Source: a virus (Duplodnaviria > Heunggongvirae > Uroviricota > Caudoviricetes). From it: DNA of 16,788 bases. The translations under genes and the position numbers were made by a program. Shown piece after piece: positions 3,092 to 12,764 of this stretch. Position 1 is the first letter of the stretch; every line of letters starts with the position of its first letter. The notes beneath the pieces are model-generated. The model saw only the letters and a program-made list of their open reading frames with translations, was not told where the DNA came from and made no database searches. Where the stretch lies: the IMG/VR virus record IMGVR_UViG_2667528074_000009; one strand, 5' to 3'.

Positions 3092-3577
3092 TTAGTTTTG
3101 CTGTTCTATTTTAAGCTTGATAGTTTCATACAAAACAATAGTTGCGCCTGTTTTACATAATTCCCGGCTGTCATACGCACGAGACCAATAACACAACCAG
3201 TTCTCGAGATCTTCTCGAGTATAGGTTTTGCAGGCCAGTCCCTCTGCCATTTCCACGATTTCATCGCCTGGTGCTGTTAACTCATAGCCATTCAACAACA
3301 AGAAGACGTAACCAGCCATCATAGCTGTTCGTTTGTTCGCATTAGCAAACGGATGATTCTGAATCAGACTTTCAATCAATACCGATGCCAGTACAAACAT
3401 GTCATTGATCTGTTCATACCATCGAACCATGCTGGGACGGGCCTGAGAAGAACTTAAGTTATCTGGACTCAGAACACCAACGGGCTCATCTGGCGTCTGT
3501 AATTCAATTAGGGAACGATTGATTTCAACAAGATCATCAACCGTAAGGTAATGCACACCTTCAACAATCTCAGCCAT
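3092..3577 (-). CDS. doc: Doc/Fic-family toxin (death-on-curing-like), 161 aa
   Basis: Contains HPFANANKRTAM, matching the Doc variant of the Fic motif (P1 Doc has HIFNDANKRTAL). Preceded 20 nt upstream by a small antitoxin-sized gene. Confidence 0.8.
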   Translation of the reverse strand: MAEIVEGVHYLTVDDLVEINRSLIELQTPDEPVGVLSPDNLSSSQARPSMVRWYEQINDMFVLASVLIESLIQNHPFANANKRTAMMAGYVFLLLNGYELTAPGDEIVEMAEGLACKTYTREDLENWLCYWSRAYDSRELCKTGATIVLYETIKLKIEQQN

Positions 3578-3597: not shown

Positions 3598-3777
3598 TTA
3601 CACTTTAGAGAGGTCTTCCATGGCTTTCTCATAACGAGAAAAACCGAAATCAAAAGCATTTTTCACTTGTTCACGATGTGCGCAGTTTTCATCAATCGCT
3701 GGGCGAGGGACTGCCACAACGCTTTTATCGCGAGGCGGAATACTCAACCGCGTGTGTTTTTTGAGTGGGCAGCTCAT
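3598..3777 (-). CDS. Putative antitoxin cognate to the Doc-family toxin (59 aa)
   Basis: ATG at 3777 with AAGGA RBS about 9 nt upstream (MSCPLKKHTRLSIPPRDKSVVAVPRPAIDE...). Stop TAA 3600..3598 is 20 nt before the toxin start. Family not recognised (not Phd-like by eye). Confidence 0.55.
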   Translation of the reverse strand: MSCPLKKHTRLSIPPRDKSVVAVPRPAIDENCAHREQVKNAFDFGFSRYEKAMEDLSKV

Positions 3778-3903
3778 ACTAATGAGTCCTTTTGTTTTCC
3801 GATTATTGGCAAAGCCATGCACCAAATTTGATGCAAAATAGATCTGTTTGAGATCCTTAGGATAGTCTAATGGTAGCTAAAATTACAACCTCATAATGCG
3901 ACG

Positions 3904-3992: not shown

Positions 3993-4148
3993 TTACTCCT
4001 CAGGTTCGTAAGCTGTGAAGACAGCGACCTCCGTCTGGCCGGTTCGGATTCGTACCTCGCAGAGGTCTTTCCTCGTTACCAGTGCCGTCACTATGACGGT
4101 TAAACAGATGACGATCAGGGCGATTAACATCGCCTTTTGCTGCTTCAT
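3993..4148 (-). CDS. hokD: Hok/Gef-family type I toxin (HokD/RelF-like), 51 aa
   Basis: Translation MKQQKAMLIALIVICLTVIVTALVTRKDLCEVRIRTGQTEVAVFTAYEPEE matches the HokD/RelF sequence as I recall it. GGAG RBS upstream of ATG 4148; stop TAA 3995..3993. Missing from the ORF track because it is under 60 aa. Confidence 0.9.
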   Translation of the reverse strand: MKQQKAMLIALIVICLTVIVTALVTRKDLCEVRIRTGQTEVAVFTAYEPEE

Positions 4149-4206
4149 AGCCTGCTTCTCCTTGACCTTTCGGTCCGTAAGAGGCTAACCTATGTTTGTG
4201 TGGCAT
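4000..4206 (-). CDS. mok: mok-like overlapping reading frame (68 codons)
   Basis: A 68-codon ORF starts upstream of hok and overlaps it almost entirely in another frame, the arrangement of mok in hok/mok/sok loci. Coding status inferred from position only. Confidence 0.45.
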   Translation of the reverse strand: MPHKHRLASYGPKGQGEAGYEAAKGDVNRPDRHLFNRHSDGTGNEERPLRGTNPNRPDGGRCLHSLRT

Positions 4207-4260
4207 AGATTGGGCCTCAGATTAATGTTAAGCGTCCTGCAAGACGCGTAATGTTAACTG
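4185..4260 (+). ncRNA. sok: Possible Sok-like antisense RNA (approximate, unverified)
   Basis: In hok/mok/sok loci Sok is antisense to the mok translation-initiation region, which here is around 4200. A TTGACC -35-like hexamer lies at 4162-4167 and an imperfect hairpin at 4233-4248. Boundaries are guesses. Confidence 0.2.
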
Positions 4261-4486
4261 GGGCTTTTCTCTGTCTGCCTTACAGTGGCATGCCCGAGGC
4301 AGACAGCCTCAAGCACCCGCAGCAATCTTACCGACACCGATAAGAAAACGCTATTTTTTATTGCCAGCACCATCTATCCAGGCTAATTTATCTGCGTCAG
4401 AACGGCGCAATGCGCTCGCCTGAGATACGTTTACTTGTCATTGGTAACAACAGATAACGGCAATTGTTGTTTCTGTTTTGTTTCCT

Positions 4487-9604: not shown

Positions 9605-10030
9605 TTAGTGCATCACCACGGCATTTCCCGCCGGGCCACCACGATTCATCTGATCGAACAGAACGATCGCTGATGCAACGAAATCATCAATATCTTTCAC
9701 CAGCCGTTCCTTCGTCTCTACCAACTCCCGAAAATAAGCGGAACTGTGGCTGCGCATTCGGGCCACCAGCGGAGGCGGCATCGCTTTTTCGATCGCTGGT
9801 AACAACGCCTGAATTTTTTTAACCGCATCAGGAGTGTCTTTCTCCACCCAGCGGAAAATTTTCTGGGTGTTACGGCCCAGGGCTTCAGGATGGCTGTCGT
9901 CGTACAGTTCCGGGAACGTCATACCCAGTTCGAAATACGCTTTGGTAATTTTCGCAGCCGGTACTTTCTCGCCGTCCGGATGCGCCCAGGCATTCATCGC
10001 CATGCGGATGTGTTCATGCTTGATTTTCAT
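9605..10030 (-). CDS. YdaT-like (CII-analog) regulatory protein, 141 aa
   Basis: Begins MKIKHEHI..., length and position immediately downstream of the Cro-like gene match the Rac YdaT family. AGGAG RBS 8 nt upstream of ATG 10030; overlaps the Cro-like 3' end by 17 nt. Family call from memory. Confidence 0.55.
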   Translation of the reverse strand: MKIKHEHIRMAMNAWAHPDGEKVPAAKITKAYFELGMTFPELYDDSHPEALGRNTQKIFRWVEKDTPDAVKKIQALLPAIEKAMPPPLVARMRSHSSAYFRELVETKERLVKDIDDFVASAIVLFDQMNRGGPAGNAVVMH

Positions 10031-10295
10031 GAATCAAGCTCCTGGAAAGTGGTTGTGTTAACGTTTGGGTATCTTCCAGCTCGGGCCAAATGTTCATCCA
10101 ATCAAAAGGCCGTAGTTGCTGACGTGTAACTTCACCATTACTAGCTCGCTCAATAAGGACACATAACGATGCCCCTAACACTTGACCTTTACTCAATGCT
10201 TTTCTTAGATAACCGATGCTAGTACCACACTCACATGCAAACATACGCTGTTCATCTGACGAAATAGAATTGAGAAATATTCTTAATTCTTCCAT
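10014..10295 (-). CDS. Cro-like HTH regulator (YdaS/DicC-like position), 93 aa
   Basis: Divergent from the repressor gene across an operator-bearing region; AAGGAG RBS 5-6 nt upstream of ATG 10295; HTH-like segment CECGTSIGYLRKALSKGQ. Confidence 0.6.
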   Translation of the reverse strand: MEELRIFLNSISSDEQRMFACECGTSIGYLRKALSKGQVLGASLCVLIERASNGEVTRQQLRPFDWMNIWPELEDTQTLTQPLSRSLIHENQA

Positions 10296-10321
10296 AACTA
10301 CTCCTTAGTAAACACAGCAAA

Positions 10322-10389
10322 GAATACCTACAGGTAAACAAAAGTCAATACCCGTGGGTTGTTTACCTTGTGGTAATCGCCTCTATTAT
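10322..10389. promoter_or_regulatory. OR-like operator/promoter region: three TACC-N4-GGTA half-palindromes with divergent promoters
   Basis: Sites TACCTACAGGTA (10326-10337), TACCCGTGGGTT (10350-10361), TACCTTGTGGTA (10365-10376). Leftward promoter candidate: -35 TTGACT (complement of 10344-10349), -10 TATTCT (complement of 10322-10327). Rightward candidate: -35 TTGTTT (10360-10365), -10 TATTAT (10384-10389). Confidence 0.55.
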
Positions 10390-10395
10390 TTACCT

Positions 10396-10815
10396 ATGGA
10401 CAAATATGAATTTAGACGAAAGCAACTCATCAAAATTCGTGATGAGAAATGCGATGGTAAAGCGGTTAACGTGGCCAGAAAAATCGGCCGCGAGCCTTCT
10501 TATGTATCAAGAATGTTGTACCCAGAGGGGAAAAAAGGGAAAAAACGGATCGCTGATGATATGGTGGAGATTATCGAAGAATCCTTTGGGTTACCCAGGG
10601 GATGGATGGATGGTATCGTTTCATCATCAACGAACACAACCTCCAATTATGAAACAAGGGTTCTAACACCACGACAACGTATTTTTTTAGATCTCTTGGA
10701 CGAACTGCCAGAAAGCGAAGCGGATAACCTATTAAAAACTCTTGAAGAGAAAAAACAATATTACAATATGATCTACGAAGAAATCAGCAAAAAGAAAGCA
10801 CGAAACGCATCATAG
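10396..10815 (+). CDS. CI-type repressor (DicA-like), 139 aa, probably leaderless
   Basis: N-terminal HTH (GKAVNVARKIGREPSYVSRML); C-terminal LTPRQRIFLDLLDELPESEADNLL resembles the DicA C-terminus as recalled. ATG 10396 lies about 7 nt after the candidate -10 with no RBS. The ORF-track start at 10354 falls inside the operator/promoter. Confidence 0.7.
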   Translation: MDKYEFRRKQLIKIRDEKCDGKAVNVARKIGREPSYVSRMLYPEGKKGKKRIADDMVEIIEESFGLPRGWMDGIVSSSTNTTSNYETRVLTPRQRIFLDLLDELPESEADNLLKTLEEKKQYYNMIYEEISKKKARNAS

Positions 10816-10847
10816 CCCACCAAACAACCTACACCTGTCAAAACGCA

Positions 10848-10884
10848 TCAAAAAATTTACCTGTGGGTATTTACTTTTTAGATA
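10848..10884. promoter_or_regulatory. OL-like operator pair upstream of the dicB-type operon
   Basis: TACCTGTGGGTA (10848-10859) and TACCTATAGGTA (10873-10884), same consensus as the OR sites, 25 bp apart, at the head of the plus-strand ydfA...int transcription unit. Confidence 0.5.
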
Positions 10885-11078
10885 CCTATAGGTATTCTCT
10901 CTTTCATGCCAACCCACCCCGCCCCACAGAACGCAGGGCAATACTTCGAGTTACCAGGCAGTGGTCAGGGGGTAAGTAGCCAGCCCGAGGCGTATGAACA
11001 TGACGGCAGGGTTCAACTTTAACTATTGCAGCAGGTTTTTGTTCCGCTACCCCGGCGTTAAGGGGAAATGAGGTCAAC

Positions 11079-11234
11079 ATGGATACTATCGATCTTGGCA
11101 ACAACGAATCTCTGGTGTACGGCGTGTTTCCCAACCAGGACGGCACGTTCACCGCTATGACGTATACCAAAAGCAAAACGTTTAAAACCGAATCTGGCGC
11201 GCGTCGCTGGCTGGAAAGAAACTCAGGTGAGTGA
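11079..11234 (+). CDS. ydfA: YdfA-like small protein (51 aa)
   Basis: MDTIDLGNNESLVYGVFPNQDGTFTAMTYTKSKTFKTESGARRWLERNSGE; GAGG RBS 6 nt upstream; length and sequence match Qin YdfA as recalled. Not in the ORF track (under 60 aa). Confidence 0.7.
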   Translation: MDTIDLGNNESLVYGVFPNQDGTFTAMTYTKSKTFKTESGARRWLERNSGE

Positions 11235-11235
11235 T

Positions 11236-11364
11236 ATGGATTTCGACACAATCATGGAAAAGGCTTACGAAGAATACTTCGAATGCCTTGCCGAAGGCGA
11301 AGAAGCTCTCAGCTTCAGTGAGTTTAAACAGGCACTTTCCAGTTCGACAAAATCTAACGGCTGA
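11236..11364 (+). CDS. ydfB: YdfB-like small protein (42 aa)
   Basis: MDFDTIMEKAYEEYFECLAEGEEALSFSEFKQALSSSTKSNG; starts 1 nt after the ydfA stop; length matches Qin YdfB. Not in the ORF track. Confidence 0.7.
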   Translation: MDFDTIMEKAYEEYFECLAEGEEALSFSEFKQALSSSTKSNG

Positions 11365-11393
11365 TAAGCGAAGCGGCACAGTGAGGAATCAGT

Positions 11394-11612
11394 ATGCAGA
11401 AACCAGAACCCGTCATCATCGCTCCAGGTTATACCGATGATGAAATTTACGAATGGATGATCAAGAAAGTTAAGGCGGTACAGGATCTGAAATGGGCCTG
11501 TGACTCCAGAGAACTGCAGGTCAAAAACCTGTCAGAACTGGATAAGGAAATTGCCGGTCTTACAGAGGCGGCATCATTGAACGTAGCCAAAGTGGCTGCA
11601 CACCTGCGTTAA
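11394..11612 (+). CDS. ydfC: YdfC-like protein (72 aa)
   Basis: 72-aa ORF with GAGG RBS 8 nt upstream; correct position and length for ydfC in the dicA-ydfABC-dicF-dicB operon. Confidence 0.65.
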   Translation: MQKPEPVIIAPGYTDDEIYEWMIKKVKAVQDLKWACDSRELQVKNLSELDKEIAGLTEAASLNVAKVAAHLR

Positions 11613-11631
11613 TATCAAGCCAACGAGATTA

Positions 11632-11814
11632 ATGATGGAAGAGACAGAACTTAAACACGTTATTGCCTTGCTTCTGGAAGATGCAAAACGCTTACATGAA
11701 CTGGAGCCCAATGCAGGCACAGAGGCCCGCATTTGGTTAGCAAAAAAATGCCTGGATAGTAAAAGTTTTCAGAAAGAAATAACAATCAGTTTTGAGAATT
11801 CGCCTCGTCTATGA
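11632..11814 (+). CDS. Hypothetical small protein (60 aa) within an insertion between ydfC and dicF
   Basis: Helical-looking ORF MMEETELKHVIALLLEDAKRLHELEPNAGTEARIWLAKK...; weak RBS; overlaps the 3' end of a convergent minus-strand ORF by 29 nt. Confidence 0.35.
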   Translation: MMEETELKHVIALLLEDAKRLHELEPNAGTEARIWLAKKCLDSKSFQKEITISFENSPRL

Positions 11815-12016
11815 ATTGTTGGATCAGATTTGCTAATTCAGTGGCATGTTTATCACCTGTGCTTTTTAAAGCATCTGTTACACAATCTGAGCGAAGTTCT
11901 GGCGGAAGTCTTGTTGCCATCAAAGCTATCGCGAGCTTAATGGCCCTTAATTCTGCATTTATTCCATCATGGGATAAATCATTATTAATAGTGGTTTTTA
12001 TTGTGTTCAAAATCAC
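11786..12016 (-). CDS. Hypothetical small protein (about 74-76 aa), antisense to the dicBF operon, in an AT-rich insertion
   Basis: Perfect AGGAGG on the minus strand (complement of 12017-12022). It abuts the GTG at 12016, so the true start is more likely TTG at 12010 (6-nt spacing). Product ...INNDLSHDGINAELRAIKLAIALMATRLPPELRSDCVTDALKSTGDKHATELANLIQQFIDEANSQN; visibly low GC. Confidence 0.4.
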   Translation of the reverse strand: MILNTIKTTINNDLSHDGINAELRAIKLAIALMATRLPPELRSDCVTDALKSTGDKHATELANLIQQFIDEANSQN

Positions 12017-12333
12017 CCTCCTGAGGGTTGTTAATTAAGGAGTTCTCCACGGGTCAGGTGGAGTGCGTGCGCCGGACACGGGTGAGCATCCGGCACTGAC
12101 AGTTTACTGAAAGGATATATCCCTGAAAAGTCAGGGCATAACGCGAAAGCGCACGGCGAAGTTCGTCTCACTGTACGGTGTCGTTAAATTTAATTCGACC
12201 GTGCGCTTCCGGTTGTGGCACTCCGCGAAATGGCGCGGCGGTAAGTATGGCGGGGTTTCTCCGTTCCTCGCAAATGCCCACCGGGTTGTCAGGTTGACCA
12301 TACGCTTAAGTGACAACCCCGCTGCAACAACCC

Positions 12334-12390
12334 ATGTTGATTACCTTTTGGCGGCATCAGTTTCATTGCTGGCTGATGTCCGCCCTTTTT
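12334..12390 (+). ncRNA. dicF: DicF-like small regulatory RNA
   Basis: Lies 185 nt upstream of dicB. Conserved GGCGGCATCAGTTT core and terminator hairpin GGCGGCATCAG/CTGATGtCCGCC followed by TTTTT; downstream sequence AAAGTGAATTTTGTGATG...GGTGAATGCGGCT.AGCGCACGCG matches the K-12 dicF-dicB spacer as recalled. The 5' end is approximate. Confidence 0.55.
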
Positions 12391-12575
12391 AAAGTGAATT
12401 TTGTGATGCGGTGAATGCGGCTCAGCGCACGCGGAACAGTTAAAAAAGTGATCGGTACTCCGTATTTGTTTTATGGAGTTGGTTTCCCTGTATTCCGGCG
12501 TTAATTGTTAACTGGTTAACGTCACCTGGAGGCACCAGGCACCGCATCACAAAATTCATTGTTGAGGACGCGATA

Positions 12576-12764
12576 ATGGAAACGTTATTACCAAACGTTA
12601 ATACGTCTGAAGGTTGTTTTGAAATTGGTGTCAGAATCAGTAACCCTGTATTTACTGAAGATGCCATTAATAAGAGAAAACACGAACGGGAGCTATTAAA
12701 TCAAATATGCATTGTTTCAATGCTGGCCCGTTTACGCCTGATGCAAAAAGGATACTGGCAATGA
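12576..12764 (+). CDS. dicB: Cell-division inhibitor DicB (62 aa)
   Basis: METLLPNVNTSEGCFEIGVRISNPVFTEDAINKRKHERELLNQICIVSMLARLRLMQKGYWQ is near-identical to E. coli DicB as recalled; same length (62 aa). Confidence 0.9.
   Translation: METLLPNVNTSEGCFEIGVRISNPVFTEDAINKRKHERELLNQICIVSMLARLRLMQKGYWQ

Follow-up and report, generated by a model that had tools for sequence, protein, structure and literature searches.

The window analysed here is the whole 16,788-nucleotide stretch of IMG/VR record IMGVR_UViG_2667528074_000009, from a Caudoviricetes virus, and the locus under study is a putative immunity switch around positions 10322-10884. A gene for a predicted 139-amino-acid (aa) repressor is separated from a divergent, YdaS-family Cro-like gene by a 100 bp intergenic region with promoters on both strands, and a dicB-type operon lies downstream. 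In the 16.8 kb there are four exact copies of the palindrome TACC-N4-GGTA (TACCNNNNGGTA), at 10325-10336, 10364-10375, 10858-10869 and 10883-10894, compared with 0.14 expected; none of 200 shuffled sequences reached four. A fifth copy, TACCCGTGGGTT at 10349-10360, has one mismatch. All five flank the repressor gene, at -71, -47, -32, +462 and +487 relative to its ATG. The initial annotation described these as five operator half-palindromes. The number stands, with four exact sites and one with a mismatch, but each site is a complete 12-bp palindrome. The sites fall into a set of three, resembling the right operators (OR) of phage lambda, and a set of two, resembling the left operators (OL). 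The promoters they overlap are named here after the lambda promoters PR, PL and PRM. The features of the region are as follows.

10321-10348, minus strand: PR-like promoter for ydaS-ydaT and the replication genes, from the promoter scan; -35 TTGACT (10348-10343), 16-nt spacer, -10 TATTCT (10326-10321)
10325-10336: OR1, TACCTACAGGTA, exact; overlaps the PR spacer and reaches two bases into the PR -10; centre about -16.5 from the predicted PR start; pyrimidine-purine-pyrimidine-purine (YRYR) centre
10349-10360: OR2, TACCCGTGGGTT, its right half imperfect; flanked by the back-to-back -35 hexamers; centre -41.5 from the repressor ATG/predicted PRM start and about -40.5 from that of PR
10362-10389, plus strand: PRM-like promoter, from the promoter scan; -35 TTTACC (10362-10367), 16-nt spacer, -10 TATTAT (10384-10389); predicted +1 at the A of the ATG at 10396
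10364-10375: OR3, TACCTTGTGGTA, exact; overlaps the -35 and spacer of the repressor promoter
10391-10402: candidate weak sixth site, TACCTATGGACA, over the start codon; Escherichia lineage only
10396-10815, plus strand: repressor, 139 aa; helix-turn-helix (HTH) domain at residues 1-72, disordered linker at about 76-87, DicA-like helical tail at 89-138, no S24 domain
10858-10869: OL2, TACCTGTGGGTA, exact; abuts the PL -35; centre about -41.5
10870-10898, plus strand: PL-like promoter (dicBp equivalent), read from the sequence; -35 TTTACT (10870-10875), 17-nt spacer, -10 TATTCT (10893-10898)
10883-10894: OL1, TACCTATAGGTA, exact; overlaps the PL spacer and -10; centre about -16.5

The scan, over 10200-11100, called two sigma-70-like promoters only, PR and PRM, back to back; the geometry of PL matches that of PR and the family consensus. 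Allowing one mismatch, the window contains 10 matches to the motif (3.45 expected). Those at 1321, 3539, 9936, 12589 and 16273 are scattered and at chance level, and were rejected. The sixth site was also rejected; it is not conserved beyond the Escherichia lineage and is probably due to chance. A 'terminator-like' hairpin called by a scan at 10858-10894 is the pairing of the two palindromic OL sites, located at a promoter, and was discounted.

Comparison with relatives reveals that this arrangement is widely conserved. Alignment of the DNA-binding domain identified 41 loci in species-representative genomes which, with phage mEp043, gave a set of 42. Five Klebsiella loci (L005-L007, L010 and L011), without OR2 or a recognisable divergent Cro, and L023, L033, L038 and L042 were set aside, leaving 34 sequences for site analysis (33 fetched loci and the window). 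OR1, about 72 bp upstream of the repressor ATG (-71 to -75), is exact in 31 of the 34, although in one of these (L024) it is displaced to -85. OR2 is found at about -47/-48 in nearly all, always with an imperfect right half (GGTT, GGGA or GGTC), and OR3, at about -32/-33, is exact in 22 and has one mismatch in eight more. An OL-like pair, 25-26 bp apart, lies just past the repressor gene or operon in 26 of 34. Elsewhere, in about 210 kb, just one exact site was found. The hosts are gamma- and beta-proteobacteria (Enterobacterales, Aeromonas, Neisseria, Burkholderiales, Xanthomonas/Stenotrophomonas, Ferrovum and Oxalobacter), in addition to coliphage mEp043. The two operator sets proposed in the initial annotation thus recur, at matching offsets, in dozens of distant relatives.

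Practically no variation is seen in the TACC and GGTA columns. The central 4 bp do vary, with the YRYR pattern in OR1, OR2 and OL but not in OR3. The operators are interlocked with promoter elements: TTGAC, a -35 hexamer, comes after OR2 and after the first OL site, and TCAA preceding OR2, the reverse complement of the PR -35 TTGA, is kept in 33-34 of the 34 loci. In OR1 and in the second OL site the last two bases are TA, which open a TAnnnT -10, and at OL the next base completes TAnnnT in 26 of 26. A homologous Cro-like protein (MxELRxYLNSLS...CGTSIGYLRKALS) is encoded alongside the cassette in most loci.

Close Escherichia alleles (L001 and L045-L048) were compared with the window at 10325-10375 and 10858-10894. 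Most changes in the intergenic and OL regions, including five of the seven intergenic ones that distinguish EC958 from the window and both of those in L048, fall in the central 4 bp of operators. They are mostly transitions that keep YRYR, and none touches a half-site or promoter hexamer. This is the pattern that constraint on the half-sites and promoter hexamers would give.

The five Klebsiella loci set aside encode S24-type repressors with the same DNA-binding domain. They keep the -73 site, with the -33 site in L006, L007 and L011 only; OR2 is absent, as is any recognisable divergent Cro-like gene within 260 bp, and the switch layout is different.

The reverse comparison gave a similar picture. 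IMG/VR was scanned with the OR2-OR3 DNA pattern alone, and at least 120 contigs matched. Among the 120 listed, 119 have an open reading frame (ORF) starting 10-30 nt downstream of the pattern, and about 116 of these 119 encode a repressor of the MDKYE type. Three among the matches listed encode a relative with 29% identity whose recognition helix retains YVSR, and have the same OR and OL layout. A motif scan of related prophages, which the initial annotation had proposed as a check, finds the palindrome at fixed offsets in one direction and the expected repressor in the other.

Relatives with a changed recognition helix, in Advenella (ASISHML) and Nitrosomonas (SYVNRIF), lack the motif and have other palindromes instead. 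No TACC-N4-GGTA was found in the K-12 Qin prophage, despite near-identical ydfA-dicB genes and the DicA tail; the DNA-binding domain of its repressor differs. The possibility that the motif is a property of the DicA tail or of the dicB operon was rejected on this basis. As both Qin and the changed-helix relatives are without the motif, operator type tracks the recognition helix of the repressor and not the neighbouring genes. The suggestion in the initial annotation that the operator sequence would define the immunity specificity of this prophage is upheld in that operator type follows the DNA-binding domain, but the specificity is not private to the prophage and is common to many genera.

The repressor itself matches phrog_5736 ('transcriptional regulator') end to end (E 1.9e-68). 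A Pfam search placed it in no family and gave no S24 match, and a sequence search of the PDB gave chance-level matches only. It carries the N-terminal signature of the family (MDKYE...REPSYVSRMLYPEGKKGKKRIADDM...GWMDG). Against nine diverse members of this family the N-terminal domain shows 69-84% identity, with 35 invariant columns. Residues 1-75 are 70-84% identical to the N-terminal domain of LexA/S24-family CI repressors of 221-242 aa. These S24-type relatives, from Salmonella, Edwardsiella, Yersinia, Klebsiella, Pantoea, Citrobacter and coliphage mEp043, carry PF00717. At the other end, residues 89-136 are 33% identical over 48 aa to residues 84-131 of DicA of Qin (E 3e-8), while no alignment is obtained for the N-terminal domain. 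Against the NCBIfam DicA profile, positions 78-132 of which are aligned, the protein reaches 25.5 bits, under the cut-off of 101. By sequence, then, the repressor is chimeric, with an HTH domain of the mEp043 type joined to a C-terminal tail of the DicA type. It fits the short, non-cleavable class of DicA, RacR and PaaR2 (about 125-160 aa), with neither an S24 domain nor an Ala-Gly cleavage module. An AlphaFold (AF2) model has a mean predicted local distance difference test (pLDDT) score of 84, exceeding 90 over residues 1-70; residues 1-72 form a helical HTH domain, 76-87 a disordered linker and 92-138 a helical hairpin. The Foldseek neighbours of the model, all weak, are Rep of Salmonella phage SPC32H, which is controlled by an antirepressor, and Xre-family, C-protein, HigA and lambda cI N-terminal domains.

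There is an A-rich run at about 10527-10548 (GGGGAAAAAAGGGAAAAAAC). In several E. coli genomes (P0011-P0017 and P0021) the called ORF starts MNLDDNNSS, in the +1 frame from an ATG at 10406, and rejoins the repressor frame here. In these alleles the true repressor is thus frameshifted within the DNA-binding domain; they are either pseudogenes or the result of homopolymer sequencing errors.

A second feature of the switch is the start of the repressor gene. TATTAT (10384-10389) is followed after six nucleotides by the ATG at 10396, the canonical spacing of a -10 and its +1, and there is no Shine-Dalgarno (SD) sequence; by contrast, the Cro-like gene has GGAG 7 nt 5' of its ATG, and the predicted PR leader of about 19 nt includes this SD. 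Across 24 non-redundant loci, -10-like hexamers (A at position 2, T at position 6 and at least four of six matches) are located 6 or 7 nt before the ATG in 16, eight at each distance, compared with 0-2 of the 24 at any other offset from 0 to 39 nt. The family -35 is TTTACC, which has four bases in common with OR3 and lies 16-18 nt from the -10. As there is otherwise little conservation from OR3 to the ATG, this positional signal reflects selection and not recent common descent. The start codon is ATG in all loci, an SD-like string occurs in only 5 of 44 scored sequences, where it overlaps the -10, and in about half of the loci there are in-frame stops 1-9 codons 5' of the ATG. An alternative GTG start at 10354 (+14 codons) was rejected: it lies inside OR2 and has no SD, half of the relatives have upstream stops, and all of them align from MDKYE.

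Leaderless transcripts have been shown experimentally for comparable repressors. The paaR2 mRNA of CP-933P was found to be leaderless by 5'RACE, N-terminal sequencing and mass determination (PMC8630535), that of racR by primer extension (PMC9638921), and those of dicA, racR and ymfK by differential RNA sequencing (PMC4681348); lambda cI transcribed from PRM is the classic case (stated in PMC8630535, PMC9638921 and PMC4681348). The geometry of -35, 16-18 nt, -10, 6-7 nt and ATG, without an SD, is retained in the family although the surroundings have diverged. The initial annotation had noted the ATG just past TATTAT without a ribosome-binding site and had proposed a leaderless transcript. The first point is borne out across the family; the second, a prediction by sequence and analogy, is now well supported, with the repressor mRNA predicted to start at the A of the ATG at 10396.

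Two observations on gene starts concern the wider family. In IMG/VR loci such as L058, L068 and L117, a TAAAAT -10 followed by G creates an in-frame ATG 2-3 codons 5' of MDKYE. There, gene callers add a spurious N-terminal extension (MRAMDKYE or MLDMDKYE, as in P0041, P0061, P0069 and P0092), which would be absent from a leaderless transcript. In addition, in the beta-proteobacterial and Xanthomonas loci L026, L032, L037, L039 and L041 the ATG of the Cro-like gene, about 84-86 nt 5' of the repressor ATG, lies about 6 nt past the PR -10 and has no SD (in L026, GGTAAAAATtcggcaATG). Both switch genes appear to be leaderless in these loci.

A different account of the start accepts the operators but has the repressor made mainly from leadered transcripts, from a YdaT-dependent promoter within ydaS/ydaT resembling the lambda promoter for repressor establishment (PRE) or from another upstream promoter, so that the -10 at 10384-10389 is minor. 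The window contains one feature in favour of this.

10020-10037: YdaT operator, TTGATTTTCATGAATCAA, exact; at the ydaS/ydaT junction, spanning the start codon of the ydaT-like gene and the 3' end of the ydaS-like gene; the only exact match in the window

The YdaT site, TTGATT-N6-AATCAA, was defined by footprinting, and in CP-933P the site OM occupies the same junction (PMC9986795), adjoining PRE933P, an alternative start of the repressor operon. Given the exact site in the window, an additional leadered, PRE-like and YdaT-controlled route to the repressor is likely. Of the three racR promoters, two are leadered, but the leaderless one is the strongest and is essential for promoter strength (PMC9638921). 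The -10 has, moreover, held its position 6-7 nt before the ATG amid diverged sequence, with no SD. Mainly leadered expression is thus unlikely; as both routes coexist in lambda, such transcripts would complement the leaderless model and not exclude it.

The interpretation that we favour, with a probability of roughly 80%, is that the region is a switch of the lysis/lysogeny type, in which the repressor acts on five operators, is expressed from a leaderless PRM transcript, and represses PR and PL. A repressor dimer would bind palindromes of 12-14 bp, (T)TACC-YRYR-GGTA(A), through an Xre/lambda-cI-type HTH with recognition helix EPSYVSRML. The outer TACC/GGTA bases would be read directly and the central pyrimidine-purine steps indirectly, as in the phage 434 operators. 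Occupancy of OR1 would block the PR -10 and spacer and so silence ydaS (Cro-like), ydaT (CII-like) and the replication genes. A repressor bound at OR2, centred at -41.5 from the repressor start and between the two -35 hexamers, could activate PRM; it is from -41.5 that lambda CI makes contact with sigma in activating its own PRM. OR3, over the -35 and spacer of PRM, may mediate autorepression at high repressor concentration, and OL2 (-41.5) and OL1 (-16.5) would together cover PL and keep the toxic ydfA-dicF-dicB operon off. Graded affinities, probably strongest at OR1 and OL, intermediate at OR2 and weakest at OR3, are suggested by the imperfect half-site of OR2 and the lack of constraint on the OR3 centre. 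No terminator-like structure was found between the repressor stop and OL2/PL (10816-10857), so PRM transcripts could read into the dicB operon unless blocked at OL. YdaS, the Cro-like protein, presumably competes for the same sites.

How the repressor would be inactivated is a more speculative matter. It has no S24 domain, and a tblastn search found no Rem homologue in the window; induction, if any, probably needs an antirepressor encoded elsewhere. By analogy with DicA/Rem and with Rep/Ant of SPC32H, this may be the likeliest route.

The sites might instead be bound chiefly by YdaS or another factor, with the 139-aa protein recognising something else. A homologous Cro-like protein accompanies the operators in most loci, so that co-occurrence alone cannot separate the two proteins, and the footprints of PaaR2 and YdaS overlap in CP-933P (PMC8630535). 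However, the five Klebsiella loci keep the repressor domain and the -73 site without a recognisable divergent Cro-like gene, the presence of operators tracks the recognition helix of the repressor, and repressor and Cro share operators in every characterised lambdoid switch. We consider binding chiefly by YdaS highly improbable. Equally hard to credit is a decayed relic whose sites persist by descent and regulate nothing: Rac/Qin-like prophages are usually defective and some E. coli repressor alleles are frameshifted at the A-rich run (P0011-P0017 and P0021), but 822 of the 5426 complete E. coli genomes have the module intact, allelic substitutions avoid half-sites and promoter hexamers, and the dicB operon is toxic when derepressed in Qin, implying strong selection to keep repression.

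Some points weigh against the five-operator, leaderless switch or qualify it. PL has 8 of 12 consensus positions, which is under the scan threshold, and so was not called. Fold matches of the repressor to solved HTH proteins are weak, the best having an E value of about 1e-3. OR2 and OR3 are just 15 bp apart, unlike the lambda sites, and pairwise cooperativity in the lambda style cannot simply be assumed. The Orbus locus L033 and the viral locus L143 carry an SD-bearing leader instead, indicating that leaderless expression is the rule but not obligatory. The additional leadered promoters of racR (PMC9638921), together with the likely PRE-like route, mean that the leaderless mRNA may not be the sole or main source of repressor. 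Nothing on the TACC-N4-GGTA motif or on mEp043 immunity was found in the literature searched.

The architecture is a well-known design, that of the lambda, Qin (DicA), Rac (RacR) and CP-933P (PaaR2) switches. CP-933P of O157:H7 has a divergent short repressor and YdaS-YdaT operon separated by about the same distance (97 bp), back-to-back promoters, an OL/PL analogue past the repressor operon, a repressor mRNA shown by experiment to be leaderless, and an identical YdaT operator at the ydaS/ydaT junction; its repressor and YdaS share operators (PMC8630535, PMC9986795). It differs in that PaaR2 starts MQKKE and has no detectable similarity to the repressor of the window, and in that its operators are 18-bp repeats of the GTTTAGTAA type. 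In addition, no paaA2-parE2 toxin-antitoxin genes follow the window repressor, where PL drives the dicB operon. In Qin (DicA/DicC/dicBp), a short, non-cleavable repressor with a homologous C-terminal tail again guards ydfA-ydfB-ydfC-dicF-dicB, and the dicA mRNA is leaderless by differential RNA sequencing (PMC4681348). The Qin switch behaves as bistable, DicA represses dicBp, and Rem is an antirepressor of DicA. The DicA N-terminal domain is, however, unrelated by sequence, its operators are TTAGCTAAC-like with no TACC-N4-GGTA, three dicBp operators have been reported as opposed to two in the window, and the Rem gene has no homologue in the window.

Further counterparts are coliphage mEp043 cI and the S24-type repressors related to it in prophages of Salmonella, Edwardsiella, Yersinia, Klebsiella and Pantoea, which share the HTH domain with its invariant recognition helix, the sequence, number and spacing of the operators, the Cro family and the leaderless geometry. 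They have a C-terminal S24 (LexA-type) autocleavage domain in place of the DicA-type tail, and are presumably RecA-inducible because of it. Lambda shares the three OR sites, the divergent PR/PRM, one site near -42 of PRM, OL sites past the repressor gene in the same transcription direction and a leaderless cI mRNA from PRM. It differs in having 17-bp operators of another sequence, three OL sites, spacing of 23-24 bp throughout and an S24 domain. In the window, by comparison, 15 bp separate the centres of OR2 and OR3, and the two -35 hexamers have OR2 between them. The phage 434 operators, ACAA-N6-TTGT, are 14-bp palindromes in which the outer bases do not vary; the centre varies and is not contacted but is constrained in composition. 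The likeness to the window lies in the 14-bp palindromes with a variable yet constrained centre (YRYR in the window family); sequence and half-site spacing differ.

(T)TACC-YRYR-GGTA(A), read by the EPSYVSRML helix, appears to be an uncharacterised specificity in the searchable literature, and residues Y36, V37, S38 and R39 of the helix are its likely determinants. The accepted view of how such switches work is unchanged, and a specialist would expect the result; what is provided is a concrete map of operators, promoters and start site for an uncharacterised immunity type, and for a common module guarding a toxic cell-division operon. Among the by-products, what stands out most is how broad and rigid the cassette is over two proteobacterial classes with interchangeable C-terminal domains. 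The family comparison gives a clean natural case of domain swapping in which the DNA-binding domain and operators stay fixed, and predicts cross-immunity between cryptic prophages and active phages such as mEp043. It is possible, though we would put the chance at a little under even, that Cro, OR1-OR3, the DNA-binding domain and OL1-OL2 represent a single, very old specificity, which circulates near-unchanged in gamma- and beta-proteobacterial prophages while the sensor end (several S24 peptidase types, or a DicA-type tail) is swapped freely. If so, the cryptic prophage that about 15% of complete E. coli genomes carry, those of sequence type (ST) 131 among them, would give superinfection immunity against mEp043-like phages, and the dicB operon would be linked to any co-resident phage or antirepressor targeting this specificity.

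Among 5426 complete E. coli genomes, 822 carry the 0.9-kb immunity module at 94-97% identity, the ST131 strains EC958 and JJ1886 being two of them. The entire window matches the best E. coli chromosomes at only about 88-90%. In carriers such as EC958, the NCBI Prokaryotic Genome Annotation Pipeline (PGAP) calls the 139-aa ORF with the identical ATG, as 'hypothetical protein', and labels the divergent neighbours 'transcriptional regulator' (YdaS-like) and 'toxin YdaT family protein'; 3' of the repressor it places DUF1391/ydfA, ydfB, ydfC and dicB. The window covers the early-left and immunity regions of a Rac/Qin-like lambdoid prophage in Escherichia, which is probably cryptic. From right to left it contains an integrase ORF, an exonuclease gene, the dicB operon, the immunity region, a gene resembling HTH replication initiators, and hok/sok and doc modules. 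The genes on either side of the repressor are as follows.

9605-10030, minus strand: YdaT-like gene, CII equivalent; Pfam YdaT_toxin, phrog_163 'CII-like'
10014-10295, minus strand: YdaS-family Cro-like gene, 93 aa; Pfam YdaS_toxin E 9e-6 (under the curated cut-off), phrog_35, GGAG SD
11079-12764, plus strand: repressed operon ydfA-ydfB-ydfC-(dicF)-dicB, with ydfB and ydfC assigned by homology
11079-11234, plus strand: DUF1391/ydfA, by profile match
12335-12385: DicF-like element, 34 bits against an Rfam gathering score of 48 (sub-threshold), upstream of intact dicB
12576-12764, plus strand: dicB, product 89% identical to K-12 DicB

The assignment of the downstream operon to the dicB type, also made in the initial annotation, is confirmed by the ydfA and dicB matches together with the sub-threshold DicF-like match. 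By its sequence, the element at 12335-12385 may be a DicF that has diverged. In the window the Cro-like ORF has 93 aa, compared with about 76 aa in most relatives; the extra C terminus comes from the overlap with the ydaT-like gene (10014-10030). At the far end of the window, the hok/sok module (3993-4318) consists of a Hok-like ORF at 3993-4148 and an Rfam sok match at 4146-4318 (109 bits). It is adjoined by a Doc-family toxin gene at 3092-3577, and a small ORF upstream of the latter, at 3598-3825, may encode its antitoxin.

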